This document shows, piece after piece, positions 5,390 to 50,565 of a stretch of 53,507 bases of DNA. Position 1 is the first letter of the stretch. Each line of letters starts with the position of its first letter. The notes under the pieces are model-generated. The model made no database searches. It was not told where the DNA came from and saw nothing but the letters and a program-made list of their open reading frames with translations. This stretch comes from Okeania hirsuta (GTDB lineage Bacteria; Cyanobacteriota; Cyanobacteriia; Cyanobacteriales; Microcoleaceae), in NCBI RefSeq assembly GCF_003838195.1, contig NZ_RCBY01000026.1:1-53507 (forward strand). Direction: 5' to 3'. The translations under genes were made by a program, and so were the position numbers.

Positions 5390-5600
5390 TTTATGCTTTT
5401 AGGGAATAGAGAACAGGGAACAGCGGTGCCACCCCGCGTCAGCGACAGACGCAAGCGGTCGGAATCCGTCTTTTGCTCCCGCAAAGCTCCGCTTTATATG
5501 TTGCAGAGCAAAAGGTAAACTACAGACAAAATATAAGTATCTTTGAAGTTTAATAATTACAGACTTAATAACTGTATTCTATGTTAATGAAAACTGCTAT

Positions 5601-5750
5601 AAAATGACGGTTATTTAAGTTTTTATGGATAGATATAGAATCAGAAATACTGGGCGATCGCTCTGTTAAAATTATAGCGTTAGCGGAGCTTTGCGTCAGC
5701 AATCGCTCTATTTGCAATGCGCCATATATAGTGTCTTTCCCTAAGTCCTG
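5601..5750 (+). mobile_element. Partial MITE-related repeat (copy A). Its right ~100 bp matches the MITE family ending ATATATAGTGTCTTTGCGTAAGTCCTG
   Basis: Near-identical to copy B. Shares the TAGCGTTAGCGGAGCTTTGCGTCAGCAATCGC core and the right TIR with the full MITEs at 22989 and 25174. Lacks the left TIR. Confidence 0.7.
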
Positions 5751-5942
5751 ACTATTTATCAACTCAAACATCAATTATTATCCAAATATCTAGTATCAGA
5801 GCTCAAATATCCTAGGCGTTGGTGATGCGTGGTTATGATTGTGCTTGAATGGCAATTGTCTAACTATTAACTGAAAAACATTTTATATTTGGCTAAATTT
5901 AGGTTTCATAGCTTGATTCACCAACGCCATATCCTACAATTA

Positions 5943-6090
5943 AAATGACGGTTATTTAAGTTTTTATGGATAGATATAGAATCAAAAATAGTAGGTGATC
6001 GCTGACAAAAATCATAGCGTTAGCGGAGCTTTGCGTCAGCAATCGCTCTATTTACCATGCGCTATATATAGTGTCTTTGCGTAAGTCCTG
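5943..6090 (+). mobile_element. Partial MITE-related repeat (copy B)
   Basis: About 90% identical to copy A, about 340 bp downstream in the same orientation. Confidence 0.7.
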
Positions 6091-6168
6091 ATGTATTTAA
6101 TTTAATTGCTGAATTTAATTGCTGTAAATATGTCGGCGACAGTCGAAACAGACCGTAGAGCATGTCAA

Positions 6169-14729: not shown

Positions 14730-15581
14730 ATGCAAACACTTGGCAATTACGAGCAAAAACTAATATTACTACCTCATCTAGCAACATTAGGTATTGGTAT
14801 CGAAGCAGGGGTACAAACAATCGACACCTATCCCTACTATGTCATCGGTATGCTGCATCTCATCAGTTCTGCTGTTTTGGGAGCAGGAGGTATCTACCAT
14901 GCAGTTTTAGGGCCGAAACAGCTTGATGAGAAAGGTTTTGGCTACGACTGGGAAGATGGCAACAAGATGACTACTATTTTGGGTATTCATCTAGTGCTGT
15001 TGGGGGTGGGAGCATCTCTATTGGTCATTAAAGCAACGGTTTTAGGTGGTATTTACGATCCACTAATAGAACAAGTAAGGTTAATACAGCCTAATCTCGA
15101 TCCCGTAAGAATTTTCGGTTATCTGTTTGGCTTTAGTCCTAATGGTTGGACAATTACTGGCATGGCTAGCGTAGATAATCTCGAAGATGTGGTCGGTGGT
15201 CATGTCTGGGTGAGCCTACTCTGCACTGTTGGTGGTCTATTTCACATTATTTCCAAACCTACGGGTTGGGCAAAACAAATACTAATTTGGTCCGGAGAGG
15301 CTTACTTGTCTTACAGTTTAGGGGCACTTGCGATCGCAGGATTTAGCGTAGCTGTCTTTATCTCCACCAACGAAACTGTTTATCCTAGCGTGTTTTATAG
15401 TCCTATTGGCAGCGACTCTGTGCGAACTGCTCTTGCTACCGTTCATGCTGGATTAGGTTTCCTAGCTTTGCTCGGACATTTATGGCACGCTTACCGAGCG
15501 CGAGCTGCTACTCGTAAAGTATTTTATGGAACGTTCTTTGACTTTATGGCTAAGAATGTTACACCTATTACACCTGCTTGA
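14730..15581 (+). CDS. CP43'/IsiA-like chlorophyll-binding protein lacking transmembrane helix I
   Basis: 283 aa. Begins [10 protein letters not shown] then goes directly into [13 protein letters not shown] (helix II region). No helix-I sequence in any frame upstream. Confidence 0.6.
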
Positions 15582-15630
15582 ATAGAAGTCAAAATCTAAG
15601 TTCAATCATTATATAAGGAGAACAATAGTA

Positions 15631-16659
15631 ATGACTGTCGTAACTGATGAGAATCTGCAAATCCCTTGGCGGGCAGGTAATGCTCGGCTTGTTAACCTAT
15701 CTGGTAAGCTATTGGGCGCTCATGTAGCCCATGCTGGCTTAATTGTACTCTGGGCTGGAGCTATTACTTTGTTTGAAGTTGCCAACTTTGATTCCTCCCT
15801 ACCAATGTACGAACAGGGCTTAATTGTACTGCCTAATCTAGCCCGCTTGGGATTTGGAGTTGGTGAAGGAGGTGTCATTGATACCTACCCCTACTTTGTG
15901 ATTGGGGTACTGCATTTGATTAGTTCGGCGTTTTTAGGAGCAGGTGGTATATTCCACGCTCTCAGAGGTCCAGCCAAACTAGAAGACAAATTTTCCTTCT
16001 TTGGCTATAGCTGGGATAATCCAGGTAAAATGACAACTATTCTAGGTATACATTTAGTCTTATTAGGAATCGGAGCATTTTTACTTGTAGCAAAAGCGAT
16101 TGCATTTGGAGGGTTATACGATCCAGTAGTTCAAAATGTACGAGTAATATCAAGTCCCACTCTAAATCCTACTACCATTTTCGGCTACTTCTTCGGTACA
16201 GAAGGACGTTTCTGGCTGGCTGGTGTTAACTCTTTAGAAGATGTAGTAGGCGGTCACATTTGGATTGGTGCTATCTGCATTTTGGGTGGTATCTGGCATA
16301 TTCGCACCGTACCCTTTGACTGGGCTAAAGGCTTATTTGTCTGGTCAGGAGAAGCATATTTGTCTTACAGTATTGGCGCAGTCAGCTTAATGGCATTTGT
16401 CGCAACATTGTTTGTGTCCGTTAACTCCCTGGTATTTCCCACAGAATTTTTCGGACCAACTTTGACTCTGGTGTTCGATCGCTTTCCTGTGTTTGTTAGT
16501 ACTGATGGAGCCTTGACTGCAAGAGTATGGTTGGCAAATGCTCACTTCTGGTTAGGATTTTTCTTCCTGCAAGGACATATATTCCACGCCCTCCGGGCAG
16601 CAGGTTATAGCTTCACCGAAGGCAGAGTAGTCACATTTACAAGAGGTCAAGTAAGCTAG
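15631..16659 (+). CDS. isiA: iron-stress chlorophyll-binding protein IsiA (CP43')
   Basis: 342 aa. Full six-helix CP43' pattern ([32 protein letters not shown]...). Confidence 0.85.
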
Positions 16660-16661
16660 TT

Positions 16662-19436
16662 ATGACTGTAACTAAATCAAATCCATTAAAGTTTTTAGGC
16701 TTTTCCACAGATAATAATGTTGATGTTGCGAACTATGTTAGTGATTCCCAAGAACCTTATTCTTGGTGGGCAGGTAATTTTCGCTTTGTTAACTTGTCTG
16801 GAAAATTATTGGGAGCGCACATTGCTCATGCAGGGTTGATCGTACTCTGGGCTGGAGCAATGACTCTGTTTGAGCTATCAAAATTCGATCCTAGTCTAGC
16901 CATGTACGACCAAGGACTGATTTTGCTGCCCCACATGGCGACTCTGGGTATAGGGGTTGGCGCAAATGGTGAAATTATTGATACTTATCCCTACTTTGCT
17001 ATTGGTGTTATCCATCTCGTTAGTTCAGCAATTCTAGGCGCTGGTGGCATTTTCCATGCCGTGCTTGGACCTGACAAACTTGATGAAAAGGGATTTGGCT
17101 ATCAGTGGAATGATGGCAAGAAAATGACTACTATCCTTGGTATTCATCTACTGCTACTGGGGATGGGAGCATTTTTGCTAGTAGCCAAAGCTATGTATTT
17201 TGATGGTTTGTATGACCCGGCGATCGCCAATGTGCGACTGATTACTGAACCCACTCTCAACCCACAGACTATCTTCGGTTACCTCGTCGGTATCACCCCT
17301 GATGGCTGGACGTTGAAGGGTATGGCTGCTGTCAACTCTTTAGAAGATGTAATAGGCGGTCACATTTGGATTGGTAGTATCTGTATTCTGGGTGGTCTCT
17401 GGCATATTAATACTGCTCCTACAAAATGGGCTAAGGGTCTTTTTGTCTGGTCGGGAGAGGCATATCTTGCCTATAGTCAGGCAGCTCTGGCTTATATGGG
17501 TTTTTTCGCAGCCTACTTTGTCTGGGTGAATGATACAGTCTATCCTTCAGTATTTTATGGTCCTGTAGGTGTGACTAATGTTGATGGTACAATCACTCCT
17601 CGCACCTGGCTGATGTTGTTCCAACTCATCTTTGCCTGTCTGCTACTGGCAGGTCACTTTTGGCATGGTCTCAGAGCTAGAGCGATCGCCAGTGGATTTG
17701 TCTTCAGTAATATGAAGTTCAATCCCGGTGCCCTCTATGGAGACACTCAGTTTAATAACGAATCTCTAGTGACTGGTATTGTACAGCCTTTCCAGAACAA
17801 TCCTCAATTGGGTAATTTGGCAACCCCAATTAATTCCAGTCAGCTTACCATCACTTGGGTTAAGAACTTGCCAATTTACCGCAATGGTTTATCTCCTATT
17901 GCACGGGGTCTAGAAATTGGCATGGCTCATGGCTACCTATTATTAGGGCCTTTTCTCAAGCTCGGACCATTGCGTAACACCGACCAAGCTCTTCTGGCTG
18001 GAGGTGGTAGTGCATCTGGCTTAGTAGTGATTTTAAGTATCTGTCTGTTTGTTTATGGGGCTGGAGCAATGACTCTGTTTGAGCTATCAAAATTCGATCC
18101 TAGTCTAGCCATGTACGACCAAGGACTGATTTTGCTGCCCCACATGGCGACTCTGGGTATAGGGGTTGGCGCAAATGGTGAAATTATTGATACTTATCCC
18201 TACTTTGCTATTGGTGTTATCCATCTCGTTAGTTCAGCAATTCTAGGCGCTGGTGGCATTTTCCATGCCGTGCTTGGACCTGACAAACTTGATGAAAAGG
18301 GATTTGGCTATCAGTGGAATGATGGCAAGAAAATGACTACTATCCTTGGTATTCATCTACTGCTACTGGGGATGGGAGCATTTTTGCTAGTAGCCAAAGC
18401 TATGTATTTTGATGGTTTGTATGACCCGGCGATCGCCAATGTGCGACTGATTACTGAACCCACTCTCAACCCACAGACTATCTTCGGTTACCTCGTCGGT
18501 ATCACCCCTGATGGCTGGACGTTGAAGGGTATGGCTGCTGTCAACTCTTTAGAAGATGTAATAGGCGGTCACATTTGGATTGGTAGTATCTGTATTCTGG
18601 GTGGTCTCTGGCATATTAATACTGCTCCTACAAAATGGGCTAAGGGTCTTTTTGTCTGGTCGGGAGAGGCATATCTTGCCTATAGTCAGGCAGCTCTGGC
18701 TTATATGGGTTTTTTCGCAGCCTACTTTGTCTGGGTGAATGATACAGTCTATCCTTCAGTATTTTATGGTCCTGTAGGTGTGACTAATGTTGATGGTACA
18801 ATCACTCCTCGCACCTGGCTGATGTTGTTCCAACTCATCTTTGCCTGTCTGCTACTGGCAGGTCACTTTTGGCATGGTCTCAGAGCTAGAGCGATCGCCA
18901 GTGGATTTGTCTTCAGTAATATGAAGTTCAATCCCGGTGCCCTCTATGGAGACACTCAGTTTAATAACGAATCTCTAGTGACTGGTATTGTACAGCCTTT
19001 CCAGAACAATCCTCAATTGGGTAATTTGGCAACCCCAATTAATTCCAGTCAGCTTACCATCACTTGGGTTAAGAACTTGCCAATTTACCGCAATGGTTTA
19101 TCTCCTATTGCACGGGGTCTAGAAATTGGCATGGCTCATGGCTACCTATTATTAGGGCCTTTTCTCAAGCTCGGACCATTGCGTAACACCGACCAAGCTC
19201 TTCTGGCTGGAGGTGGTAGTGCATCTGGCTTAGTAGTGATTTTAAGTATCTGTCTGTTTGTTTATGGGGCGGTAGTGTTTCAAGGTTCTAGAGAACCAAG
19301 AGGCGTTTTACCGGAGAACCTACAAACTTATCAGGAATGGAGTTTGTTTACCTCTGGTTTTCTCATTGGAGGACTAGGCGGTGTAGTTTTTGCCTGCTTT
19401 ATCCTTATAGAAATCGGGCGAGCGGGAATTTTGTAA
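16662..19436 (+). CDS. IsiA-PsaL fusion protein with an internal in-frame tandem duplication of 403 aa
   Basis: CP43'-like domain followed by a PsaL-like domain (NLATPINSS...[36 protein letters not shown]). Residues from GAMTLFEL to FVYGA occur twice, identical. Confidence 0.75.
16852..19269 (+). repeat. Perfect direct tandem duplication, 2 x 1209 bp, inside the isiA-psaL ORF
   Basis: 16852-18060 is identical to 18061-19269 in my read. Sequence diverges after GTTTATGGGG. Confidence 0.85.
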
Positions 19437-19646
19437 CTTTGTTTGCTTGAGCAGGGGAAGAAGGGCAGAAGTTAATATTCCTAATTTTTATCAGGAAAGG
19501 CAGAAGGCAGGAGGCAGTAGGCAGAAGGGAATTCTGACTCGCCTGTTACCTTTAGGGGAACAAGGGTATAAAAACCCCATCCAATTGTTCCTTCTGCCCT
19601 CTGCTCTCAGCATAGCTGCCTTAGTTCATCGGATATTTACTATGTT

Positions 19647-21060: not shown

Positions 21061-21313
21061 TATCAATAATCAGGACTTAGGCAAAATATGAAATCATACA
21101 CCATCTGTAGTTAAAATTGTACTTTTCCTCTACTATATGTGGTAATTATGCGTAAGCCCTGTAATAAATGTAACATTATGACAAACATCACAAAAACTTA
21201 CATATCTACTTCACTCGATCGACACCAAAAAATCACGGTTGGTTGTACCATTAATCACTACCAAATCAGGAAAAAGAGTGGATGATTAAAATATAGAATT
21301 CAAGGTTAATCTT

Positions 21314-22988: not shown

Positions 22989-23152
22989 CAGGACTTACGC
23001 AAAGACACTATATATAGCGTTTACCAATTTAGGCGATTGCTGACGCAAAGCTCCGCTAACGCTTAAAAAATCAAGTGCGATCGCCTCAAGATTTTGGGCA
23101 TTTTTCAAACAAGAGTAAAAACACTTAATATAGTGTCCTTGCGTAAGTCCTG
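22989..23152. mobile_element. MITE, 164 bp, with 25-bp terminal inverted repeats CAGGACTTACGCAAAGACACTATAT
   Basis: Both TIRs read directly. Same family as 25174-25448 and the partial copies at 5601 and 5943. Confidence 0.8.
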
Positions 23153-23317: not shown

Positions 23318-23483
23318 TTTTTCTTGAGTTTGACAACAATTTTATTCTATAGCATTCTATATTCACTAACGCCTGAAAGTTTACATTAGGCATCTCCAAT
23401 AATCAAAAATAAAATCAATTATCATACATAAATCATCAATTATTTCCCCCTACTCCCTACTCCCTACTCCCTACTCCCTCTTT

Positions 23484-23559: not shown

Positions 23560-24957
23560 ATGGCTCAGTCTCTAAACGATCACCTTCACCTTTCTATCAT
23601 TGCATGTGGTCACGCTGGTTCCGGTAAGTCCACCACCCTATGACACTTGATCTACAAATGCGGCTCGATTACCAAGCGTCAGATATCTACGTTTGAGAAA
23701 GAGTCTCTTGAAATGGGAAAGGGGTCTTCCAAGTATGCCTGGGTCATGGATAGAACTCCGGAGGAACGCGAGCGAGGTATGACCCTAGAGGTGAACTACT
23801 GGAGAATAAAAACGGAGAAATATTTCTGCCATCTCATTGATGTTCCCCATGCCATTGATCAAGTGATTAGTGCGGCCTCCCAAGCTGATGCTGCGATACT
23901 CATGGTTGATGCCAAAAAAGGAAGCTTTGAAGCTGGCTATGCTATGGACGGACAAACTCGCCAACACGCTTTCATACTCTATTGCCTTGGTGTCAAGCAG
24001 CTTATTGTTGCTGTCAATCAGATGGATGCTGTTAACTATGACCAAGAGCGCTACAACGAGATTGTTCTAGAAATGAGTGAACTTCTCAAAAAAATTGGCT
24101 ACAATCCGAAAGCAATTAGGTTTATTCCTATCTCTGGATGGACAGGTGAGAACTTCTTGGAACCAGCAAGTAATATGAGTTGGTATCAAGGTACTCATAT
24201 TGAGATGATGAACAGGTACGGGAATTTGGTACGAGCTTCTTTTAAAACCCTCTTCGAGGCTATTAATACCTTTCTTCTACCTTCAGATGACTCTGGACCC
24301 ATGCGTACCTGTGTCTCTAGAGTATTTCAACCCGGGGACGACCATAACCTACAGATTGGTAATGGTCGATTTTCATTTATGGGACATGTTGAACGTGGAA
24401 TCCTTAAGCCGGGAGATGAAGTTGTCTTTTACCCCACTCACACCAACTCCAACCCTTGCACAGCTAGAATTACCAATCTAGAGATTAGCCATGAGGAGAC
24501 CACCTCCGCTAAGAAGGGTAACATTGTCAATTTTATTCTCGATGGTATTTCCCATGCTAACTCGCCCCATGTTGGTGATGTCATGGTTCATAAATCCGAC
24601 TCCTCTATTGGCAGGATTCGGAGCTTCCAAGCTCAGGTTATTGTGCAATCTCATTGTGGTTCGATTGAAGTTGGCTACCAGACCACAGTCCTTATCAATA
24701 GTGCCCAGGTTGTAGTCCGCCTCACTGCTATCGAGCGTCAACTAGATAGAAGGGGTCGCACCATCGCTGAGAACCCCGCTAAGATTGAGGAAGGAGATGG
24801 TGCCATTGTTACATTTGAAGTCCAAGAACCTTTAACGGCAGAGCCATTCAAGGATTGTTCAGGACTGGGTCGGTTGATTCTGATGGACGGTAATAAGAAT
24901 TCTGAGGGCGTTGCCAATTTAATAGTTGGTGTCATCCGAGAGGTTGAACGTGTTTGA
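23560..24957 (+). pseudogene. eEF1A/aEF1A-like (EF-1alpha family) GTPase with in-frame TGA at 23641-23643 and degenerate G3/G4 motifs
   Basis: Frame from the ATG at 23560 gives [39 protein letters not shown]... then GKGSSKYAWVMDRTPEERERGMTLEV..., ASQADAAILMVDA, QLIVAVNQMD, and domains II-III collinear with eEF1A. Confidence 0.7.
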
Positions 24958-25173: not shown

Positions 25174-25448
25174 CAGGACTTACGCAAGGACACTATATAT
25201 GGTGCTTAGCGTTCAGACTATCTCTATATTGGCACTGCTTACTAGGTTCCTCTGAGCGATCGCCTGAACTCCAAAACATAACTAATAGATATCTCCGAAA
25301 AAGAATCTGAAATCCCTGTGTATAGGTAAAAATATAATTTCTAGAGATGTTTAATGGAATATTCACTAACATAGGCGATCGCACTTGATTTTTTAAGCGA
25401 CCGCCTAAATTGGTAAACTCTATATATAGTGTCTTTGCGTAAGTCCTG
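25174..25448. mobile_element. MITE, 275 bp, same TIR family (CAGGACTTACGCAAGGACACTATATAT ... ATATATAGTGTCTTTGCGTAAGTCCTG)
   Basis: Both TIRs read directly. ORF-track entries 25193-25600 and 25341-25541 lie inside it and are probably spurious. Confidence 0.8.
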
Positions 25449-30204: not shown

Positions 30205-31242
30205 GTGTTGGTAGTGCCTAATTTATCATTTGGCAAAATTGCAAAGTTTTCGGTTTCTATCAGAATAGGAATTTTTATTTTAACATTATTTCTGGGTTGG
30301 ATACCACTAGCAGCACCAATATATTTTTTTGGGCGAGATGCAAATTTAGCGAGTATATTGGCGATCGCTCTATTATATATAGAGTTTATTATTTTAGTCC
30401 AGTTTTGGGGAAAGAAAGTTTATCAACAACCACACCTACTACGTCACTACGGTTTAGAAATAAGTAGGGTCAACTTTCAGAATTTTTTTCAAGGTTTAGG
30501 AATAGGTTTAGTTAGTCTGTTTGGTTTTTTTATTTTAGAAACGTTTCTGGGATGGGTAATATGGCAGTCACCTTCAGCAAAGTTACCTCAATTTATTCTG
30601 GAAGGTTTATTGGTATCTGTGGGTATTGGTTTTGCTGAGGAGTTACTATTTCGAGGGTGGTTATTGGATGAGTTGGAGCGAGACTACAAACCAAAAGTAG
30701 CTTTGTGGGTAAGTAGTATTGTGTATGCCTTACTACACTTTATTAAACCAGTTGAGGAAATTTTGCGGATTTGGTTTCAGTTTCCTGGTTTGGTGTTGTT
30801 AGGTTTAATCTTTGTTTGGGCAAAACGTGGATCAGTTGAAGAAGGAAGAAGGAAGAAGGAAGAAGGAAGAAGGCATCCCCCCTTGCCCCCCTTTGAAAGG
30901 AAGAAGGAAGAAGGCATCCCCCCTTGCCCCCCTTTGAAAGGAAGAAGGAAGAAGTGGATGGTGACTCAAAACCCAACTAATTATCAACACCGTGTAGATA
31001 GCGGGGTATTAAACCCAAAAGAAAAAGATAAATTGACTTATTATCAACAACAATTATTGGGTTTGCCTATTGGTATTCATGCTGGTTTTGTGTGGGGTTA
31101 TTACATTATTAATGTGGGTGGTTTAGTTAAGTATTCTAGTGTAGTTGGAGAGTGGGTAGTTGGGATAAATGGTAATCCTTTAGCGGGTGTAATGGGGTGG
31201 TTATTTTTAGGGGCGATCGCTTTATTTATTCAGCGAAAATGA
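30205..31242 (+). CDS. CPBP-family intramembrane metalloprotease (CAAX protease / Abi domain) with an in-frame STRR insertion
   Basis: EELLFRGWLL and ALLHF motifs. Nucleotides 30841-30957 are a GAAGGAA heptamer array with a duplicated 45-bp unit. It encodes EEGRRKKEEGRRHPPLPPFERKKEEGIPPCPPLKGRRKK without breaking the frame. Confidence 0.7.
   Translation: MLVVPNLSFGKIAKFSVSIRIGIFILTLFLGWIPLAAPIYFFGRDANLASILAIALLYIEFIILVQFWGKKVYQQPHLLRHYGLEISRVNFQNFFQGLGIGLVSLFGFFILETFLGWVIWQSPSAKLPQFILEGLLVSVGIGFAEELLFRGWLLDELERDYKPKVALWVSSIVYALLHFIKPVEEILRIWFQFPGLVLLGLIFVWAKRGSVEEGRRKKEEGRRHPPLPPFERKKEEGIPPCPPLKGRRKKWMVTQNPTNYQHRVDSGVLNPKEKDKLTYYQQQLLGLPIGIHAGFVWGYYIINVGGLVKYSSVVGEWVVGINGNPLAGVMGWLFLGAIALFIQRK
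30841..30957. repeat. STRR heptamer array (GAAGGAA) with a duplicated 45-bp unit, inside the CPBP CDS
   Basis: Direct reading. Confidence 0.85.
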
Positions 31243-33212: not shown

Positions 33213-33410
33213 GCCTCCAGTTTTAAGGGGATAAAAAGCGGTCGTTTGCGGAGCATGACCTTAGGATGGGATGGCGATCTTCGGAGCGGCTCTGATAAGA
33301 GCGGGTCTCCTCGCCATATCCATGAGACCAAGAGAAGAAAAAATTTCATGATTAGTCAATCCTATCCGTTTTCAAGGAGAGGTAATTCTAAATTCTTAAT
33401 TCTAAATTCT
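33213..33410 (+). repeat. ~195-bp direct repeat, copy 1 (contains CTCTGATAAGAGCGGGTCTCCTCGCCATATCCATGA and AAGGAGAGGTAATTCTAAATTCTTAATTC)
   Basis: About 85% identical to 33527-33726. Partial relatives at 45640-45790 and 5427-5500 (reverse). Confidence 0.7.
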
Positions 33411-33526
33411 TAATTCTTGAACTCTCTTTGGCCAAGTTCTTTACATTGGACAAGTTTTTTCGCACTTTCAGGCGTTTTATCCCCTCAATCCATTTTTTTA
33501 ATCTTTTTTTACCAAATAATTAAGGT

Positions 33527-33726
33527 TTAAAGCCTCTCCTTTGAAGGAGAAACAAGCGGTCCTCTTCGGAGCTTCCCGTAGGGTGGGATGGCGCAATTCG
33601 GGGCAGCTCTGATAAGAGCGGGTCTCCTCACCATATCCATGATACCAAGAGAAGAAAAAATTTTCATGATTAGTCAATCCTATCCGTTTTCAAGGAGAGG
33701 TAATTCTAAATTCTTAATTCTTGAAA
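33527..33726 (+). repeat. ~195-bp direct repeat, copy 2
   Basis: See copy 1. Confidence 0.7.
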
Positions 33727-34724: not shown

Positions 34725-35398
34725 TTTATTGAACTTAAATTCGACTCTGTTTCTATTTTATTGTAAGCATTTCCTACGGAATGCTGCGCAAACAGCTATT
34801 AGCTGTCAGCTCTCAACAACAAGACTCTCTCATATAGGACAGTGTTTAAATTAATATAGACTTTAAGGGCAAGGGAGCTAACTTTTGCAGTAAGACAATT
34901 AATAAAGCTTTTATCGTAAACTAAAAGCAATAGCTAATAGTTATGACTGACCGTTGAATGCTTCAATAAAAGTTTTATTTAAACCCTGTTATTAAGAGCG
35001 AAGTATTAAATTTTTGTACTTCATATACTTGCATTTTGCTGTATTAAACTCAGCTCTATAATTATTTTGTCTGTTCAAATTTTTCAACTTTAATTTTGTT
35101 ACATGAATATTCTTTCCATTATCCACTTTGAAATTTGTCCTAAAGCAAATCTTCCTGCCAATGCTAGGAAAATATAATACAGTAGATTCCAATTTAATGA
35201 GGTACACCAGTTGTGGGCAAGATGCCCGCACTACAAACATTTAATTGTTAATCTCTGTACTTCTTATGGGAGGAATTTGCTGTAATTTATATTTATCACT
35301 CCAGCTTCAGTTTCTAGAATGTTCTGAACAAAGAAAGATAGAAAAAAATAGCAGGCAAAAACAGTACTAAAACTTTAGTTTTAGTGTTTATAAAAGTT

Positions 35399-35485
35399 AT
35401 AGCAGTCGAAGGAAAGGTTAGGACAGATAAAAAATTTAAAACTCAGACAAAGCAATATTTTTCTTTATTCCCTCTTCCTTCTACT
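35399..35485 (+). repeat. Dispersed repeat GTCGAAGGAAAGG...AAAACTCAGACAA[AC]GCAATATTTTTC followed by TTCCTTC heptamers (copy 1 of 3)
   Basis: Copies at 36888-36990 and 50457-50565. Confidence 0.65.
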
Positions 35486-35511
35486 ATGCACCAATTCCTG
35501 AAAATAATGCT

Positions 35512-35952
35512 CTACTTATATTCATTGTTAATTTTTGAATAACTAGGAAAACTCAATAACCATTTCCTCATTTCATCAGATAATTTTTGCCTACTTCTAC
35601 TTTGAGGATGAATACAAACGTGCTTCGTAATAGCTCTCGCCACCCACTTATCTCCTGCCTCTTTTAAAAAGACTTGATAGAAAATTTCAAACTCATCATC
35701 TCCCCAATTTTTAGGCATTAATTCAATAGTTAACTCATCTCCACAAAACATCGGGCGACGAAAATCAACATTAGCATGAATAATCGGAATAGCCATTTCT
35801 TGATTACTAAAAAAGACTTTCAGATTAATACCAAATTCTCCTAAAGATGCCTCATAAGCTTCATGGCACATTGCTAAAACATTAGCAAAATAAACCACTC
35901 CAGCAGCATCGGTATCTTGAAAATGAACTATTCTTGTATAGTAAAAAGACAT
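35512..35952 (-). CDS. hotdog-fold acyl-CoA thioesterase (YbgC/4HBT family; possibly the DHNA-CoA thioesterase type)
   Basis: FQDTDAAGVVYFANVL...CHEAYE motif block. Confidence 0.6.
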   Translation of the reverse strand: MSFYYTRIVHFQDTDAAGVVYFANVLAMCHEAYEASLGEFGINLKVFFSNQEMAIPIIHANVDFRRPMFCGDELTIELMPKNWGDDEFEIFYQVFLKEAGDKWVARAITKHVCIHPQSRSRQKLSDEMRKWLLSFPSYSKINNEYK

Positions 35953-36059
35953 TTATAAAGATAGGTTTAATAGTTAAGTTGAAGAAAGTTTTAGGTGGAA
36001 GCTTTTAGGTTCAATTGAAGATTTAATTCCAAGCAATTTATAGATACTGTGAAAACGGT

Positions 36060-36890
36060 CATATTTTCTATACCTATAACCTACAACCTGCCATCTACCA
36101 CTTAAGGAAGGATAAGGACAATAAATCATATATTCAGGAATTAGGGATTTTTGAGTTCTAAACGCTACATATCTGTAACGTTATAGTTTTTGTTTCCTAT
36201 ATATAGTGTCTTTACCTAAATATCGATCGCCTAACACCTACCACTAAAGCAAAGGTAGGGATAATAAATCATATATTTAAGAATTAGGGATTTTTAATTT
36301 CTAAACACTACATATCTATAACGTTATAGTTTTTGTTCTCTATATATAGTTTCTTTACCTAAATAGAGTAGGAACAATTAATCATAATATTCAGGAATTA
36401 GGGATTTTTGAGTTCTAAACACTACATATCTGTAACGTTATAGTTTTTGTTTCCTATATATAGTGTCTTTACCTAAATATCGATCGCCTAACACCTACCA
36501 CTAAAGCAAAGGTAGGGATAATAAATCATATATTTAAGAATTAGGGATTTTTAAGTTCTAAACGCTACATATCTGTAACGTTATAGTTTTTGCTCTCTAT
36601 ATATAGTGTACTTGCCTAAATTTTGATAATCTAACACCTACCACTAAAGCAAAGGTAGGGATAATAAATCATATATTTAAGAATTAGGGATTTTTAAGTT
36701 CTAAACGCTACATATCTGTAACGTTATAGTTTTTGCTCTCTATATATAGTGTACTTGCCTAAATTTTGATAATCTAACACCTACCACTAAAGCAAAGGTA
36801 GGGATAATAAATCATATATTTAAGAATTAAGGATTTTTGAGTTCTAAACACTACAGATATGTAACGTTATAGTTTTTGCTCACTATATAT
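36060..36890. repeat. Tandem array of about 6 units of 128-144 bp (two identical 143-bp units at 36488-36773), each with two hairpins
   Basis: Units start CTAACACCTACCACTAAAGCAAAGGTAGGG at 36231, 36487, 36631 and 36774. Each contains CCTACC...GGTAGG and TAACGTTA stems and a TATATATAGTGTCTTTACCTAAAT segment related to the MITE TIR. Confidence 0.85.
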
Positions 36891-36990
36891 AGTAGTTGAA
36901 GCAAAGGGTGCGGACATATCAAAAGCTTAAAACTCAGACAACGCAAGATTTTTCAGTCCTTAGCTCCTTCCTTCTTTCTTTTCTGAACAA
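36888..36990 (+). repeat. Dispersed repeat (copy 2 of the 35399 family)
   Basis: ...AAAGGGTGCGGACATATCAAAAGCTTAAAACTCAGACAACGCAAGATTTTTC + TCCTTC heptamers. Confidence 0.65.
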
Positions 36991-37059
36991 TGAACAATAC
37001 TAAATTTGATTGTAGTAATTGTTCATTGAACATTCATCAGGACTAATTTTGTAATTAAA

Positions 37060-37506
37060 TTAACCCTTATTTTTAATCATCATTACATCAATAATATTAG
37101 TAGCTACTGCTTCAGAAATTTCCAAAGCATTATATAACTCATTCAAAAGTTGTTCCTCCTCTTCAGCAAGGTCTCCATCTACTAAAACCAAGTCTGTACT
37201 AACAGCAAAAACTGTTTCCCTTAACTCCTTTGGAAGTTTAGCAACTGCAGCATCAAACAAAGGCTTAATTTCTTGATTTTTAATCATATCGAGAAGACGG
37301 TCTTGCATTTCTGTTTTACGTTCTTTTGGATAATCACTAAACAGTTGCATACGAGAGAAAATATTATTAATACCTTGAGATTCACTCTTAGTAATAACAC
37401 CATCAGCAGCAACAGCAATTAAAGCGATCGCTGCAAAAGCTTCTGCCGGTTCTAATTGAATATCAGTAGCTTGTATTGTTGTTGTTCCTTGATCGAAAAG
37501 ACCCAT
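37060..37506 (-). CDS. TerB-domain (tellurite-resistance TerB-like) protein
   Basis: 148 aa, acidic, helical, with a TerB-like pattern (AAIALIAVAADGVITKSESQ...). Confidence 0.5.
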   Translation of the reverse strand: MGLFDQGTTTIQATDIQLEPAEAFAAIALIAVAADGVITKSESQGINNIFSRMQLFSDYPKERKTEMQDRLLDMIKNQEIKPLFDAAVAKLPKELRETVFAVSTDLVLVDGDLAEEEEQLLNELYNALEISEAVATNIIDVMMIKNKG

Positions 37507-39730: not shown

Positions 39731-40185
39731 AAAGAAACGTAAGTATTTAGCCGTCAGCTTTCAGCTCCATTAGAACTAATGACTATAGCCTTTAAAGCAG
39801 AAGTTACCATTGACAGATTTTATCTAATTAAAAATATGAATTAAAAGTTTCCCTAGTAACTTCTAAAGTCTTAAAAAATGCTTACTTCATTTATTAATCA
39901 AGATGAGAGCTGACCACTAATCACTGTTTGTGGAGCATTCAGGCACGGAAATCCTTATACCAATTTCATAAACTTGAGCTACTTAGGTTTGGAGTAGTCA
40001 GTAGTCAGTAGTCAGTAGTCAGGAGGTAAGGTGAGTAGCCTTACTTTTTGAATTTGGTATTACAAAGAAACAAAGAATATGGAAGAGATAAAAAAGTAGA
40101 AACTTGCTCAATAGACATATAGATATCTCCAGAAAAGAGATAACAGGTAACAGGAAGAAATAATAGAAATCATCAATTATTTCTC

Positions 40186-40240
40186 CCTACTCCCCTACTC
40201 CCCTACTCCCTGCTCCCTACTCCCTACTCCCTAAATTGGG
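40186..40240. repeat. STRR array (CCCTACT heptamers)
   Basis: Direct reading. Confidence 0.8.
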
Positions 40241-40342: not shown

Positions 40343-41979
40343 TTATGGGCCAGCTTGAGCGATCGCCCGAATTGTCTCAGCCCCCAAAGCCTCCACTTTT
40401 TGCTGAAACTCAGTAGCAGTAATTTCAGCCATTTGCCTTGCCTTCTCAATCTCTAAATTATTCAGTGTCTGCTGATGGGCTAACTCAGTCTCCTGACGCG
40501 CCCTCAACTGAGCCATCTCAGCCTCATGGCGAATCCGTGCTGCTTCTACTTCCTGCTGCGCCAAATTCACCGCCAACTGGCCTTGAAAAGGAGATAACAT
40601 ATAAGCTTGAGGTCCATTGACTAATTTTAGTTCCCCACTTTGAACATCCCGTACATATATACCTTCATTTTTGTCTAGGGGAATAGCCTGAAGTTTTTCT
40701 AATACTTCTAATTCCACTGGGGGAATATAATCTCTTGGCCCAGTAATCATCCATAAATCTCCTGGTTGCCGAGTAATAACGTTTGCTCCTGTTCCCTCGG
40801 TGAAAGTTTCCTCAACTCTGATTAGGAGTGCTTCTTGTTCACCAAGAATATAGACCTTTTTAATTCCTGTTTCTAAATCTTCTCCTGGGTGCAAAAAGAA
40901 AGATGTTCTGCCCTGACGCACTTCTTTCATACCCCACTGCGGTTTACCATCTGCATCTATGGGATTAGTTACTATGCACCATTCGCGATCGCTTAAAGTA
41001 GTGATTTTGACTTCTCCCACTACTTCTTCATAAACGTCGGGAATATGAATTTCAGCATCTGCAAAAGTAACTAACTATTCATATCCCGCTTTGCGTTGCT
41101 GACCAAAAATATCAGTAAAAGTCCGTTTTGCTTTTAGATGTAGTGCTTGACGTTCGGTTAATACATAGGCATCAATAGTATCGACAATTTCTTCATCTAC
41201 TCCAGGCAAATAAGCACCTTCTTCCCTGACCAACCATTATTCCCCAGTTCTACGTCTGTTACCTTGACGATCTATACAATTTTGTCGTGCCAGCAGTCGT
41301 AAGGCTTGGTTAGGTTTAATTATTTTAGCTATAACTGTGACTACCACTTCAACTTCTACCCTGGGAGTGTAAGTTCCTGGCCCCTCAAATAACCATTCAT
41401 CCCCTGTCGTACGAGTGACAGTTTGAGACTCTCCTGCAACGATAACTGTATCAGTAAAATCTCGTATTGCTTTGAGACGTAGAGTTTGGTTTGTGTCAAT
41501 TACTTGTAGTTGAGTTACATCTTCTTCGAGTATTTCTCCTGGATATAGTGGGAAAGGGTCTTGAGCAAAGCGAATTTCCAGATCGCCATATTTGAGTCTA
41601 ATTTAACCATACTCATCGGCCACAAGTTGATCTGAACTATAGCAATGTGCGCTGGCATATTTACACATTATTTTTTGTACACCTTTTCTAAAATGCACTT
41701 TGAACTGGGCCTTGTAAATACCTGAGCGCTCATTGCTATATTTCTTAGTACAGGGTTAGCTGCTACACAATAATGGCGAGGTGGAACTACAATTGTCAGT
41801 TGTGGTTGTCAGACTAACCTTTCTGCATCTCCAAGGGTAATGGTTTGAGGGCCTATTTCTAGTCTGATAACACCAGTGTTATTGTCAAGAACATGAATAT
41901 ACTGTTGTGGCTTCAGGAGAATTATACCATTGTTCTCTATTGTAATTGGATATTCTGTGGTACTTTTTATTTTACTCAT
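40343..41979 (-). pseudogene. Major vault protein (MVP) homolog, pseudogenized by four in-frame stops and a 103-bp inverted-repeat insertion
   Basis: Reconstructed frame: MSKIKSTTEYPITIENNGIILLKPQQYIHVLDNNTGVIRLEIGPQTITLGDAERLV*QPQLTIVVPPRHYCVAANPVLRN [insertion] [33 protein letters not shown]...[22 protein letters not shown]...TGE*WLVREEGAYLPGV...KAGYE*LVTFADAEIHIPDVYEEVVGEVKITT... This is MVP-repeat signature throughout. The C-terminus ends TIRAIAQAGP like the vault cap helix. Confidence 0.75.
41638..41740. mobile_element. 103-bp insertion with 16-bp imperfect TIRs (TATAGCAATGTGCGCT / AGCGCTCATTGCTATA) interrupting the MVP reading frame
   Basis: MVP homology is continuous across it once it is removed. 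Its length is not a multiple of 3. Confidence 0.55.
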
Positions 41980-42042: not shown

Positions 42043-44421
42043 CTATCGTCGCCAAATTTTAATAGTTCTGTCTTTACTACCACTAGCAATACTATTACCA
42101 TCAGGACTAAAAGTAACTGTATAAATCTCATCTTTATGCCCGGTCAAAGTACTAACTAATTCTCCTGTTTCTAAATCCCATATCTTAATATTATTATCCT
42201 TACTGCCACTAGCAATATATCGACCATCTTCGCTAATATCAACAGATACAACTTCAGCAGTATGACCAAGAATAGTTTTGATTAATTCTCCTGTTTTTAA
42301 GCTCCAAATTTTAATAGTATTATCGTAACTCCCACTCACTATTTTTTCCCCATCTGGACTAATATCAACAGACCTAATTACTCCTTCATGTCCAGTCAAT
42401 GTATTAATTAATTCTCCAGTATATAAATCTTCAATTTTTATAGTTTGATCTGCACTACCACTAACCAATATTCTGCCGTCAGGACTAATAGCAATAGAAT
42501 AAACTACATCTGAGTGATCGGGGAAATTAAAAATTAAGAAACCTGTTTCTAAATCCCAAACTTTAACTGTTTTATCTCCACTAGCACTAGCAATTGTTTG
42601 ATTATCAGAACTCATAGCAACTGACCAAACAGGTGCCCAATGTTCAAATACTCGAAATAATTCTCCTGTTTCCAAATTCCAGATCATTACTCTCCAATCA
42701 TAAGTACCTACCACTAATTTAGTACCATTATTATTCAAAGCAACTGACCAAATTGGAGAATCATCTGCAGCTAATGTGTTGATAATTTTTCCTGTAGGAA
42801 CTTCTAAAATTTTTACTGTTGTATCTCTACTTCCAGTAACTAAATTTTCGCCATTATCACTAAATGCAAGAGCGCCTATAGAAGCATTAAACCTAGACAA
42901 ATCTTCAACTTGATAATTCTGCCAATTTAGACCTTGTTGACAATTTTGTAAAAGAGATTGAGCTTCAGCAAAAATGCTAGATTTTTCACTAATTAAAGTT
43001 CCTTGATTGATACATTCTTCATAGTTGCGCTCTATGTATAAGTTTTTTACAAAATTAAATTTTGCCGATTCTTGTTCTTGCTGTTGTAATACTTGTTGTT
43101 GACGTAATTGTAAATAATTTTGGAATTTAAGATATCTATATATAGCAAAGATTATTACAATTAAGGTAGCGATAAATCCTAAAATCAACTGCCAGTTAAA
43201 AGATGATTGTTTGTTATTATTGCTAAATATTTTTTTAAATTTAGTAAGTAGAGATTTTGGTAAAACTCTGTTTTCTATTAATTCTATATCTTCTTGAGTT
43301 AGTCCTAAAATTTGCTGTAGACGCTCTAACTCCTGGCGAGTTTCTTGACTAAAAGGATATTCTTCCTGAATCGCAGCTTTTAATGTTTCTTCATATCTTT
43401 CTCCTTTCATCCGATATTTACGGTAAGGATTTAATACTTCATCCTCAATTATTTCCGTTTCTTCCCGGGAGAGTTCTAAACTTTCTCTAAGTTCATCTAA
43501 AATTCTTCTCCCGACAATAGAAATATCTCCTCTATCGCTAGCTCGACGAATAACCTCTTCCCGATAAATTTCTTTATTATCTGTAGCGAAACTTGGAAAC
43601 TCATTAATTTTTTTTAAATCTGCTATAACTTCTGCTGCTGACTGGTAACGTTCGTGAAAGTTATAGCGCACCATTTTATCTAAAATATCTGCTAGAGAAG
43701 TAGAACAATTTGTTAGGTATCGCCAAAAAATCTCTTTTTTTTCACCATTTTCATTATCCTTTAGTTTCGATAATTCGCTGCTAGGCAATCCCGTAATTGC
43801 CTGAATGCCAATCATTCCTAAAGCATAAATATCACTATTTAATTGGGGATTATATTCAAATTGTTCAATTGGCATATATTCCATTGTGCCAATCCTAGCT
43901 GTAGGATTTTGCTGACCAATATTAATTTCTTTAACAGCTCCAAAATCAATTAATACTAATTGATTATCCGATTTTCTTCTAATTAAATTAGCAGGCTTAA
44001 TATCTCGATGAATAACACTATTTTCATGCACAAATACTAAAATTTCTAATACTTCATTGATAATTAAAATTACTTGTTTTTCAGATAGGGGTTTACCAGG
44101 TAATATTTCATTGTCTAAAGATTGACCAGGAATAAAAGATTGAACTAGAAAAAACTCTCGATCTTCTTCAAAATATGCAAGTAGTTTAGGAATTCGATCA
44201 TGTTGAGAAAGCTTTTCTAGCATCTGTGCTTCTTTTTGAAATCGATCGCGAACGATATTAATTAATCTTCGATCATAAATACTTGGTTGTAGATGCTTAA
44301 TAAAACATTGTGCTTCTCCAGGACGACGAATGTCTAAGGCCAGATAAGCATGGCCAATTTCCCCTGATTCAATAATTTTAATAATTTGATAGCGTCCATC
44401 TAAAATATTACCAATCATCAT
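42043..44421 (-). CDS. Ser/Thr protein kinase with a C-terminal WD40 repeat domain
   Basis: Kinase subdomains (HRDIKPANL, DFG, APE-like), a central TM/coiled-coil region, then seven WD repeats (GH...WD). Confidence 0.9.
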   Translation of the reverse strand: MMIGNILDGRYQIIKIIESGEIGHAYLALDIRRPGEAQCFIKHLQPSIYDRRLINIVRDRFQKEAQMLEKLSQHDRIPKLLAYFEEDREFFLVQSFIPGQSLDNEILPGKPLSEKQVILIINEVLEILVFVHENSVIHRDIKPANLIRRKSDNQLVLIDFGAVKEINIGQQNPTARIGTMEYMPIEQFEYNPQLNSDIYALGMIGIQAITGLPSSELSKLKDNENGEKKEIFWRYLTNCSTSLADILDKMVRYNFHERYQSAAEVIADLKKINEFPSFATDNKEIYREEVIRRASDRGDISIVGRRILDELRESLELSREETEIIEDEVLNPYRKYRMKGERYEETLKAAIQEEYPFSQETRQELERLQQILGLTQEDIELIENRVLPKSLLTKFKKIFSNNNKQSSFNWQLILGFIATLIVIIFAIYRYLKFQNYLQLRQQQVLQQQEQESAKFNFVKNLYIERNYEECINQGTLISEKSSIFAEAQSLLQNCQQGLNWQNYQVEDLSRFNASIGALAFSDNGENLVTGSRDTTVKILEVPTGKIINTLAADDSPIWSVALNNNGTKLVVGTYDWRVMIWNLETGELFRVFEHWAPVWSVAMSSDNQTIASASGDKTVKVWDLETGFLIFNFPDHSDVVYSIAISPDGRILVSGSADQTIKIEDLYTGELINTLTGHEGVIRSVDISPDGEKIVSGSYDNTIKIWSLKTGELIKTILGHTAEVVSVDISEDGRYIASGSKDNNIKIWDLETGELVSTLTGHKDEIYTVTFSPDGNSIASGSKDRTIKIWRR

Positions 44422-50378: not shown

Positions 50379-50456
50379 TTAGAGTTCTGAGTTATTAATT
50401 TTGATCGGGAATAGTCTTTATAATATAGCATATTACCTATGGCCAAATAAGGTATG

Positions 50457-50565
50457 GCAGTCGAAGGAAAGGGTGCGAACAGATCGAGAGCTTAAAACTC
50501 AGACAACACAATATTTTTTCTTTTTCCTTCTTCCTTCTTTACTTCTTCCTTCTTCTTTCTGCTAT
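50457..50565 (+). repeat. Dispersed repeat (copy 3 of the 35399 family) plus TTCCTTC STRR
   Basis: GTCGAAGGAAAGGGTGCGAACAGATCGAGAGCTTAAAACTCAGACAACACAATATTTTTTC... Confidence 0.65.

Follow-up and report, generated by a model that had tools for sequence, protein, structure and literature searches.

Okeania hirsuta and Okeania sp. KiyG1 are reported to have the highest diversity of MITEs (miniature inverted-repeat transposable elements) among prokaryotes (PMC11602168). ISPlag1, a 1,306-bp element of the IS701 group of insertion sequences (ISs), is known from Planktothrix and ends in a 29-bp terminal repeat, CAGGACTTACGCAAGCACGCTATATATAG; the motif quoted for it is WKIEEFH (Christiansen et al. 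2008, PMC2464740). In Trichodesmium erythraeum, a tandem array of seven repeats gives 44.7% of the primary reads and the most abundant RNA (PMC4143802). Here we describe a tandem array of ~143-bp units that lies between a TerB-like gene and a hotdog thioesterase gene in a 53,507-nt stretch of O. hirsuta DNA (RefSeq assembly GCF_003838195.1, contig NZ_RCBY01000026.1; hereafter the window). A preliminary description had offered three candidate explanations for it: an NsiR1-style array of small RNAs (sRNAs), a satellite of truncated MITE ends, or a regulatory repeat array. We propose that the array is very probably a minisatellite, or variable-number tandem repeat (VNTR), built from a small non-autonomous DNA transposon, an ISPlag1-related MITE, together with flanking DNA.

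All coordinates are those of the whole window, and the array is read along the strand of its flanking genes, the minus strand.

36075-36893, minus strand: the whole tandem array, six MITE-plus-spacer units (Tandem Repeats Finder, anchors, profile matches, unit layout).
35512-35952, minus strand: gene for a hotdog thioesterase (1,4-dihydroxy-2-naphthoyl-CoA hydrolase type); it lies downstream of the array (open reading frame (ORF), 4HBT Pfam matches, source-database names).
37060-37506, minus strand: TerB-like gene, upstream of the array (ORF; conserved DUF815 ATPase - TerB - thioesterase synteny).
36135-36222, minus strand: MITE copy nearest the thioesterase gene, profile positions 4-91 (nhmmer E=1.9e-22).
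36280-36365, minus strand: MITE copy 2, profile positions 4-89 (nhmmer E=8.6e-20).
36392-36479, minus strand: MITE copy 3, profile positions 4-91 (profile matches, unit layout).
36536-36622, minus strand: MITE copy 4, part of the first of two identical units (profile match).
36679-36765, minus strand: MITE copy 5, part of the second identical unit (profile match).
36823-36893, minus strand: distal MITE copy, without the left terminal repeat (profile match, unit layout).
36223-36279, minus strand: locus-specific spacer with a CCTACC-N11-GGTAGG hairpin (unit layout).
36480-36535, 36623-36678 and 36766-36822, minus strand: equivalent spacers.
36075-36134, minus strand: degenerate spacer.

An anchor on a conserved 12-mer, TTARGGATTTTT, recovers the six head-to-tail units counted in the preliminary description. 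Over 36095-36893 Tandem Repeats Finder reports a period of 143 (3.7 copies, 93% matches, score 875) and a second period of 257, which is a 143+114 composite (score 929), with 93-95% matches over both periods. The anchor occurs at 36141, 36284, 36398, 36541, 36684 and 36827, giving spacings of 143, 114, 143, 143 and 143 bp. The unit length of ~143 bp stands, but the range of 128-144 bp given earlier is a little off: one unit has only 114 bp, and the array ends distally in a truncated unit. The short unit results from a 26-bp spacer without the hairpin (36366-36391), gene-proximal of MITE copy 3. Two units had been called identical, and they are: 36488-36630 equals 36631-36773, and a 199-nt run from 36488 repeats exactly at an offset of +143. 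Of the two stem-loops ascribed to every unit, the TAACGTTA palindrome is present in all six, but CCTACC-N11-GGTAGG is intact in only four (36237, 36494, 36637 and 36780), being degenerate in the gene-nearest unit and deleted from the 114-bp unit. The gap that holds the array, described as a 1.1-kb spacer upstream of the thioesterase gene, measures 1107 bp from the TerB-like stop (37060) to the thioesterase start (35952). The six-unit array is beyond chance, and it is also found in a contig of the public Okeania assembly GCA_010672625.1, where the array region is 99.7% identical. The window is ordinary chromosome, with genes for PriA, a sigma factor, adenylosuccinate lyase, isiA-like proteins and a DEAD-box helicase among others; O. 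hirsuta and other Okeania have proteins identical to its thioesterase and its TerB protein, and no transposase was found among the window ORFs scanned.

A family profile of 91 positions is matched from position 4 to 91 in five units of the array, and in the sixth, which is truncated, it covers what is left of the element (E 1e-18 to 1e-22). Since the profile covers the whole element in each complete unit, the array unit consists of one full MITE plus 53-56 bp of other DNA. Hence the idea of a satellite of truncated MITE ends was right about the MITE satellite and wrong about the truncation, because a complete small MITE is repeated with ~55 bp of locus-specific flank. The segment TATATAGTGTCTTT, which had been related to a MITE terminus, is indeed so related; it is the inner part of a 29-bp terminal repeat, and the similarity extends to the whole ~91-bp element in the units. 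The spacer, outside orthologous arrays, has no match in the ~400 kb of related DNA searched.

The element is ~91 bp long (101 bp with a 10-bp internal duplication) and has, in gene orientation, the consensus CAGGACTTACGCAGAGACACTATATAYAGYGTTCAAAAACTATAACGTTATAGATATGTAGTGTTTAGAACTCAAAAATGCGTAAGTCCTG. In aligned scan matches it is bounded by CAGGACTTACGCA and TGCGTAAGTCCTG, which in dispersed copies form 13-bp terminal inverted repeats. A degenerate 20-base pattern taken from the unit, AACGTTANNNATNTGTAGNGTTTAG, was scanned against one genome per species in 185,579 species and matched 37 loci, both single copies and arrays, all in Okeania, Dapis, a Trichodesmium-labelled metagenome-assembled genome (MAG) or Microcoleaceae MAGs. 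These loci are spread over ~12 genomes, with at most 10 in one genome, and the same pattern found no copies in viral contigs. Perfect 5-bp AT-rich target duplications flank the element at eight independent dispersed loci (ACTAA, ATCTA, TTTAA, AGAAT, TTTAT, ATTAA, GATAT and GAATT), the chance of a perfect 5/5 duplication being 0.0025 per locus, and sister subfamilies add four more (ACAAT, TATAT, TAGAT and GGTAT). All dispersed copies are intergenic, none lying within an ORF, their orientation is unbiased relative to neighbouring genes, and the canonical ones fold into long hairpins (z -3.5 to -7.4). In groups of orthologous dispersed copies, each spanning 2-5 genomes, the element is present in every member. 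Over 30 copies the terminal helix shows 72.5% pairing, and 7 of its pairs are altered on both sides; this coordinated change of the two termini is consistent with pairing in a hairpin or with a single transposase that recognises both ends. Judged from sequence features, namely terminal inverted repeats, target duplications, small size, non-coding nature and dispersed copies, the element in the array units is a MITE. Within the window array itself, the units have degenerate terminal repeats and show no recognisable target duplication.

The termini may also point to a parent. Sister elements of 91-275 bp, which share these termini and differ in their interiors, are frequent, and three of them lie in the window.

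22989-23152: 164-bp MITE of the same superfamily, with a 29-bp ISPlag1-type terminal repeat, CAGGACTTACGCAAAGACACTATATATAG (repeat comparison).
25174-25448 and 21071-21161: further MITEs of the superfamily.

By manual count, CAGGACTTACGCAAAGACACTATATATAG and the ISPlag1 terminus are identical at 26 of 29 positions. At one dispersed locus, L034, a transposase fragment that matches the IS701 family model and contains WKIEEFH adjoins such a terminus. The termini of this MITE superfamily, as aligned here, match those of ISPlag1, an IS701-group insertion sequence.

Two of the window MITEs have reciprocal 5-bp flanks: TTGAA precedes and ATTAA follows the copy at 22989-23152, and ATTAA precedes and TTGAA follows the copy at 25174-25448. 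A cointegrate or composite transposon inserted at TTGAA would leave such a pattern, though the interiors of the two MITEs differ. An EF-Tu-like GTPase is encoded in the 2-kb segment that separates them (ORF 23647-24957).

The copy number of the array in the TerB-thioesterase gap varies widely between strains. It is 11 in Okeania sp. KiyG1, 9 in SIO2C9, 6 in the window and GCA_010672625, 5 in GCA_010672645 and in SIO1I7 (units 80-87% identical in the latter), about 4 in each of GCA_010672745, GCA_010672505 and SIO2G4, and at least 3 in SIO2B3. There are no units in the O. hirsuta assembly GCA_003838225, nor at the syntenic site in three other species (SIO3I5, Dapis M229 and GCA_035285525). Thus the proposed check for the same array upstream of thioesterase orthologs came out positive in several Okeania (at least 3 to 11 units) and negative in these four genomes. 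The order DUF815-TerB-thioesterase-ApbA is kept in every genome examined, with or without the array. In GCA_003838225 the gap is just 125 bp (L047 2876-3000), the array, an adjacent ~90-bp repeat and ~120 bp of unique proximal DNA all being absent, and its thioesterase protein does not differ from the one in strains with about 4 units; a recent deletion is the simplest explanation, and the array would then be dispensable. Between the window and SIO2C9 the gene-near units are positionally orthologous, the 114-bp unit included, and distal unit variants have expanded separately in each lineage. Head-to-tail direct repeats with a copy number that is polymorphic between strains make this locus a minisatellite, or VNTR, and with 0 to 11 copies it is most likely an ordinary dispensable one rather than a new array of RNA genes.

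A simple history may account for these features. An Okeania ancestor would have received a MITE copy between its TerB and thioesterase genes, an insertion that is not seen directly because the array units have no recognisable target duplication. The element and ~55 bp of adjacent unique DNA would then have been duplicated head-to-tail. By visual reading, both array ends lie at the element's (TA)n palindrome, CTATATATAG, and homology in the distal MITE copy ends at this palindrome, where the ~90-bp repeat abuts; the position of the ends suggests that the first duplication involved microhomology, by slippage or unequal exchange. Later unequal recombination or replication slippage between units may have grown and shrunk the array in each lineage. 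With degenerate terminal repeats and without the strong hairpin, the copies in the window array are probably no longer mobile. At most, the array would be carried within, or would interrupt, a DUF815-TerB-thioesterase transcript. Our literature search found no paper describing this MITE family or its arrays.

Several observations weigh against a neutral minisatellite of an ISPlag1-type MITE and deserve to be set out together. Between the window and SIO1I7 arrays the element is ~92% identical and the spacer ~84%, a visual reading with small numbers. An intact autonomous ISPlag1-like copy with these termini was not recovered from Okeania among the examined related loci searched; all that came to light between matching termini was, in L034, a mosaic of transposase fragments of the IS701 and IS1634 types. 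The element core carries a sigma-70-like sequence, TAAACA-17-TATAGT, on the opposite (window plus) strand, which matches at 9 of 12 positions. Arrays account for 7 of 22 independent loci of the MITE subfamily, against ~8% expected by a rough estimate from the share of intergenic DNA lying in arrays, and this excess hints at a built-in propensity or selection. A neutral or nearly neutral array is the most likely case given the sequences compared. On the other side, in four groups of orthologous single copies the element is not better conserved than its flanks when the positions fixed by the search pattern are set aside. In the orthologous copies at L010, L023, L026, L034 and L043 (five genomes), terminal repeats carry more substitutions than flanking unique DNA, mostly at ACGC/GCGT positions, with hypermutable sites or conversion between copies as possible causes.

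The array excess rests on six further loci at which the same MITE subfamily forms independent arrays with unrelated spacers.

L015: 4 copies, with an intact GAATT target duplication.
L016: 3 copies.
L020: 6 copies, with a nested ~100-bp insertion amplified together with the element.
L025: 2 copies.
L029: 5 copies.
L040: 7 copies.

The excess is inflated, since an exact search pattern hits a locus with several copies more readily. In addition, arrays of 100-300-bp period without the MITE are common, with ~14 in ~400 kb of these genomes. Considering both points, we read the recurrence as mostly a property of these genomes, and an extra array-forming propensity of the MITE itself is possible but unproven. 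Other local repeats show related behaviour. At L020 (positions 1-1303, Dapis sp. BLCC M172) the insertion lies between ...GTTTAGG and TAGAACT..., and at least 6 copies follow a 230-bp period. In the window, a 340-bp tandem duplication at 5600-6091, with 2 copies that are 91-94% identical, includes the end of another ISPlag1-type MITE and is thus a second case there of a MITE amplified along with flanking DNA. At 33259-33721, between the P450 and ApbA genes, another dispersed repeat that forms a hairpin (...GGATGGCG...CGCCATATCCATGAGACCAAGAGA...) makes up a 318-bp tandem duplication, and a related copy of this repeat lies in the TerB-thioesterase spacer of Okeania SIO1I7 (L004 5330-5440). In two other Okeania genomes (L027 7236-7962 and L030 2474-3642) an array of ~295-bp period, with 2.4 and 3.9 copies respectively, adjoins a single MITE that is itself excluded from it.

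One may argue that the sigma-70-like sequence makes the locus a tandem promoter or sRNA array. Each unit's TAAACA-17-TATAGT would fire outward over the left terminal repeat and yield many non-coding RNAs of about unit length, antisense to TerB-thioesterase, like NsiR1 or the Trichodesmium repeat arrays. The sequence lies in the conserved core and recurs in every L040 and L015 unit, in 3 of the 5 L029 units and in 3 of the 6 window units (36302, 36416 and 36845), the other three window units having lost it; a T5 run follows the TAACGTTA palindrome in all six units; and the same MITE has formed arrays repeatedly. The abundant T. erythraeum transcript is a precedent, and Correia-type MITEs carry outward promoters (review PMC3184786). 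Set against this, promoter-like matches in the window array region number 7, compared with 9.9 +/- 3.0 in shuffled sequence, half of the window units have a weakened -35 hexamer, TAAACG, and the apparent conservation of the core is in part produced by the search pattern itself, as bases immediately beyond it vary as much as the flanks. Terminator-like sites are absent from the window array and from the units of L015, L029 and L040, the single match in the L029 scan lying beyond its array, and the TAACGTTA stem has only ~5 AT-rich pairs. The NsiR1 DIF motif TCCGGA does not occur in 36050-36900, and GCA_003838225, of the same species, has no array at all. We consider a tandem promoter or sRNA array unlikely.

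Structural tests, which would bear on any RNA product, were likewise negative. Rfam, searched at gathering threshold over the whole window and at a permissive threshold over 35300-37100 and two canonical dispersed copies, gave nothing relevant at the array; the only window matches above gathering are IsrR, inside the isiA-like genes. A scan of the window for transfer RNA and transfer-messenger RNA found none. Array units fold no better than shuffled sequence on either strand (z -0.05 and -0.19). The preliminary description had proposed covariation analysis of the hairpins, and for the spacer hairpin, with pairs counted over five lineages, there are several disruptive changes, no compensatory ones and pairing no better than in shuffles. 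With no Rfam match, terminator, TCCGGA, compensatory change or folding excess, the NsiR1-style sRNA array proposed earlier was not borne out.

In its broadest form this alternative would make the MITE core a portable sigma-70-type promoter and the arrays at no fewer than seven loci outward promoter banks for abundant non-coding RNAs of unit length whose body is the array spacer, the repeated array formation then being no accident; on the sequences at hand this seems improbable. If it were true, it would describe a transposon-seeded route to new tandem sRNA genes, possibly tied to the tandem-repeat transcript of the sister genus Trichodesmium; and if the arrays are transcribed, they would be an example of transposons creating tandem non-coding RNA genes.

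A second alternative is that the array acts in cis on the operon, its hairpins altering the stability, termination or translation of the DUF815-TerB-thioesterase mRNA, or its palindromes (CTATAACGTTATAG and CTATATATAG) binding a protein, in the manner of Correia elements or of repetitive extragenic palindromes and bacterial interspersed mosaic elements (REP/BIME). The three genes and all element copies are co-oriented, a 125-bp gap without the array is compatible with an operon, and the array persists in several Okeania lineages. RNAalifold over 30 family members predicts a 12-pair element hairpin on the gene strand, with G-U pairs that two U-to-C changes strengthen in array units. These G-U to G-C changes are one-sided only, however, with 0 of 12 pairs compensatory, and most alignment columns are fixed by the search pattern, which means that the result says little. 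Family orientation is unbiased relative to neighbouring genes, a copy number of 0 to 11 makes constraint not apparent, and visual inspection, which is no database test, recognised no convincing NtcA, NdhR, LexA or Fur-type operator or other known cyanobacterial motif. A regulatory repeat array, as suggested earlier, thus finds no positive evidence, and one O. hirsuta assembly and three other species do without it; we regard a cis-acting role as very unlikely.

The ~90-bp repeat at the distal end of the array raises the third alternative. The preliminary description had listed three copies of it, all of which are present.

36888-36990: copy of a separate dispersed repeat, ~70-100 bp long, in which GAAGGAAAGG pairs at long range with CCTTCCTTC; it abuts the distal array end (repeat comparison).
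35397-35485: second copy, 26 nt downstream of the thioesterase stop (repeat comparison; also present in SIO1I7).
50453-50560: third copy, downstream of an OmpA-family gene (repeat comparison).

The three copies are 82-85% identical over 66 nt, and the first two, in direct orientation and 82% identical, bracket the thioesterase gene and the array as had been reported. They might therefore delimit a composite mobile cassette of gene plus array. The positions hold but their significance does not: SIO1I7 and a tar-biofilm MAG have the array without the upstream, array-abutting copy, so the bracketing is incidental in view of these two lineages. The thioesterase gene keeps its place in the DUF815-TerB-thioesterase-ApbA order everywhere, with or without the upstream copy, and the repeat is dispersed downstream of unrelated genes. 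This synteny effectively refutes a cassette delimited by the ~90-bp repeat, which we consider extremely improbable. At all four places seen, the three in the window and L003 1359-1423, the repeat starts 26-140 nt after a stop codon and its relative orientation is constant, with no U-run after it at these places; it could be a structure of the 3' untranslated region or another small mobile element.

Two further classes were considered and rejected. A CRISPR array had been dismissed at the outset, correctly, as the segments between elements are copies of one another and no cas-like ORF is among the window ORFs scanned. REP/BIME is rejected because the units are all direct and AT-rich and the family has 5-bp duplications. 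NsiR1, CRISPR and REP/BIME are excluded as classes because their defining features were looked for and are absent.

Apart from the array, the window holds other repeated sequences and genes. Four tandem isiA/CP43'-like genes lie at 14730-19436, each with a match to the IsrR antisense RNA. One of their ORFs, of 924 aa (16662-19436), has two photosystem II (CP43-like) and two PsaL domains with a 1209-bp period, 100% identical over 300 nt, which suggests that an IsiA-PsaL fusion was duplicated in tandem and is read through in a single frame. A fragmented gene with major-vault-protein repeats lies at 40343-41020, the vault ORF of Okeania SIO3I5 being >900 aa, and a Ser/Thr kinase-WD40 protein is encoded at 42043-44421. 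Vault-like genes are uncommon in bacteria. Heptanucleotide tandem repeats (AGAAGGC, CCCTACT, GAAGAAG and others) are abundant in the intergenic DNA of the window, at sites that include 1-55, 19497-19528, 23448-23479, 30838-30954 and 40183-40233; such repeats are typical of filamentous cyanobacteria.

The main effect of reading the locus as a MITE minisatellite is to remove a candidate new RNA array from the list. It also indicates how small ISPlag1-type MITEs seed hypervariable minisatellites in the repeat-rich group of Okeania, Dapis and Trichodesmium. Such loci disrupt short-read assemblies, one MAG being split inside the array at the window locus, and such arrays may add to the non-coding share of these genomes, which is unusually large. 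In practical terms, they could serve as VNTR markers for typing strains of the bloom-forming, natural-product-rich Okeania.

Among known systems, ISPlag1 is the closest by its ends. Its 29-bp terminus agrees with that of the longer window MITEs at 26 of 29 positions, the array units keep the inner part (CACTATATATAG) together with a degenerate outer part, and the IS701-model transposase fragment with WKIEEFH stands next to such a terminus in L034. It differs in being a full-length autonomous element of another genus, Planktothrix, in which short remnants are also found, whereas the elements here are 91-275-bp non-coding derivatives, the array subfamily having a rearranged right half. Cyanobacterial MITEs such as Nezha of Anabaena/Nostoc are likewise small, non-coding, intergenic and dispersed, with terminal inverted repeats, target duplications and a stable hairpin. 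However, Nezha and the MITEs of PMC11602168 belong to another sequence family with another parent IS, and the element here is also amplified in tandem with flanking DNA.

As regards tandem repeats, the NsiR1 array of heterocystous cyanobacteria and the seven-repeat array of T. erythraeum (PMC4143802) also consist of tandem non-coding intergenic units with a promoter-like motif. Their units are ~60 nt and 736-973 bp, respectively, compared with 143 bp here, and the Okeania array, known from its sequence alone, shows no sequence or covariance-model similarity to them, no DIF motif and no terminator, and has a MITE origin. REP/BIME of enterobacteria are also clustered palindromic units in intergenic or intercistronic positions and are able to act on mRNA stability, but they are alternating ~35-bp GC-rich palindromes that depend on RAYT (Y1) transposases and lack target duplications, unlike the direct, AT-rich Okeania units with the 5-bp duplications typical of DDE transposition. 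The mycobacterial interspersed repetitive units (MIRU-VNTR) and the BOX repeats of pneumococcus offer a parallel, as each is a dispersed intergenic repeat found in head-to-tail arrays of strain-variable copy number between co-oriented genes. MIRU and BOX are not known as transposons with target duplications, and because the repeated unit here is a MITE plus locus-specific spacer, each array has its own unit, unlike MIRU and BOX. By its sequence relationships, then, the feature belongs to two known kinds at once, the MITEs of ISPlag1/IS701 type and the intergenic minisatellites, among which MIRU-VNTR and BOX arrays are comparable cases.

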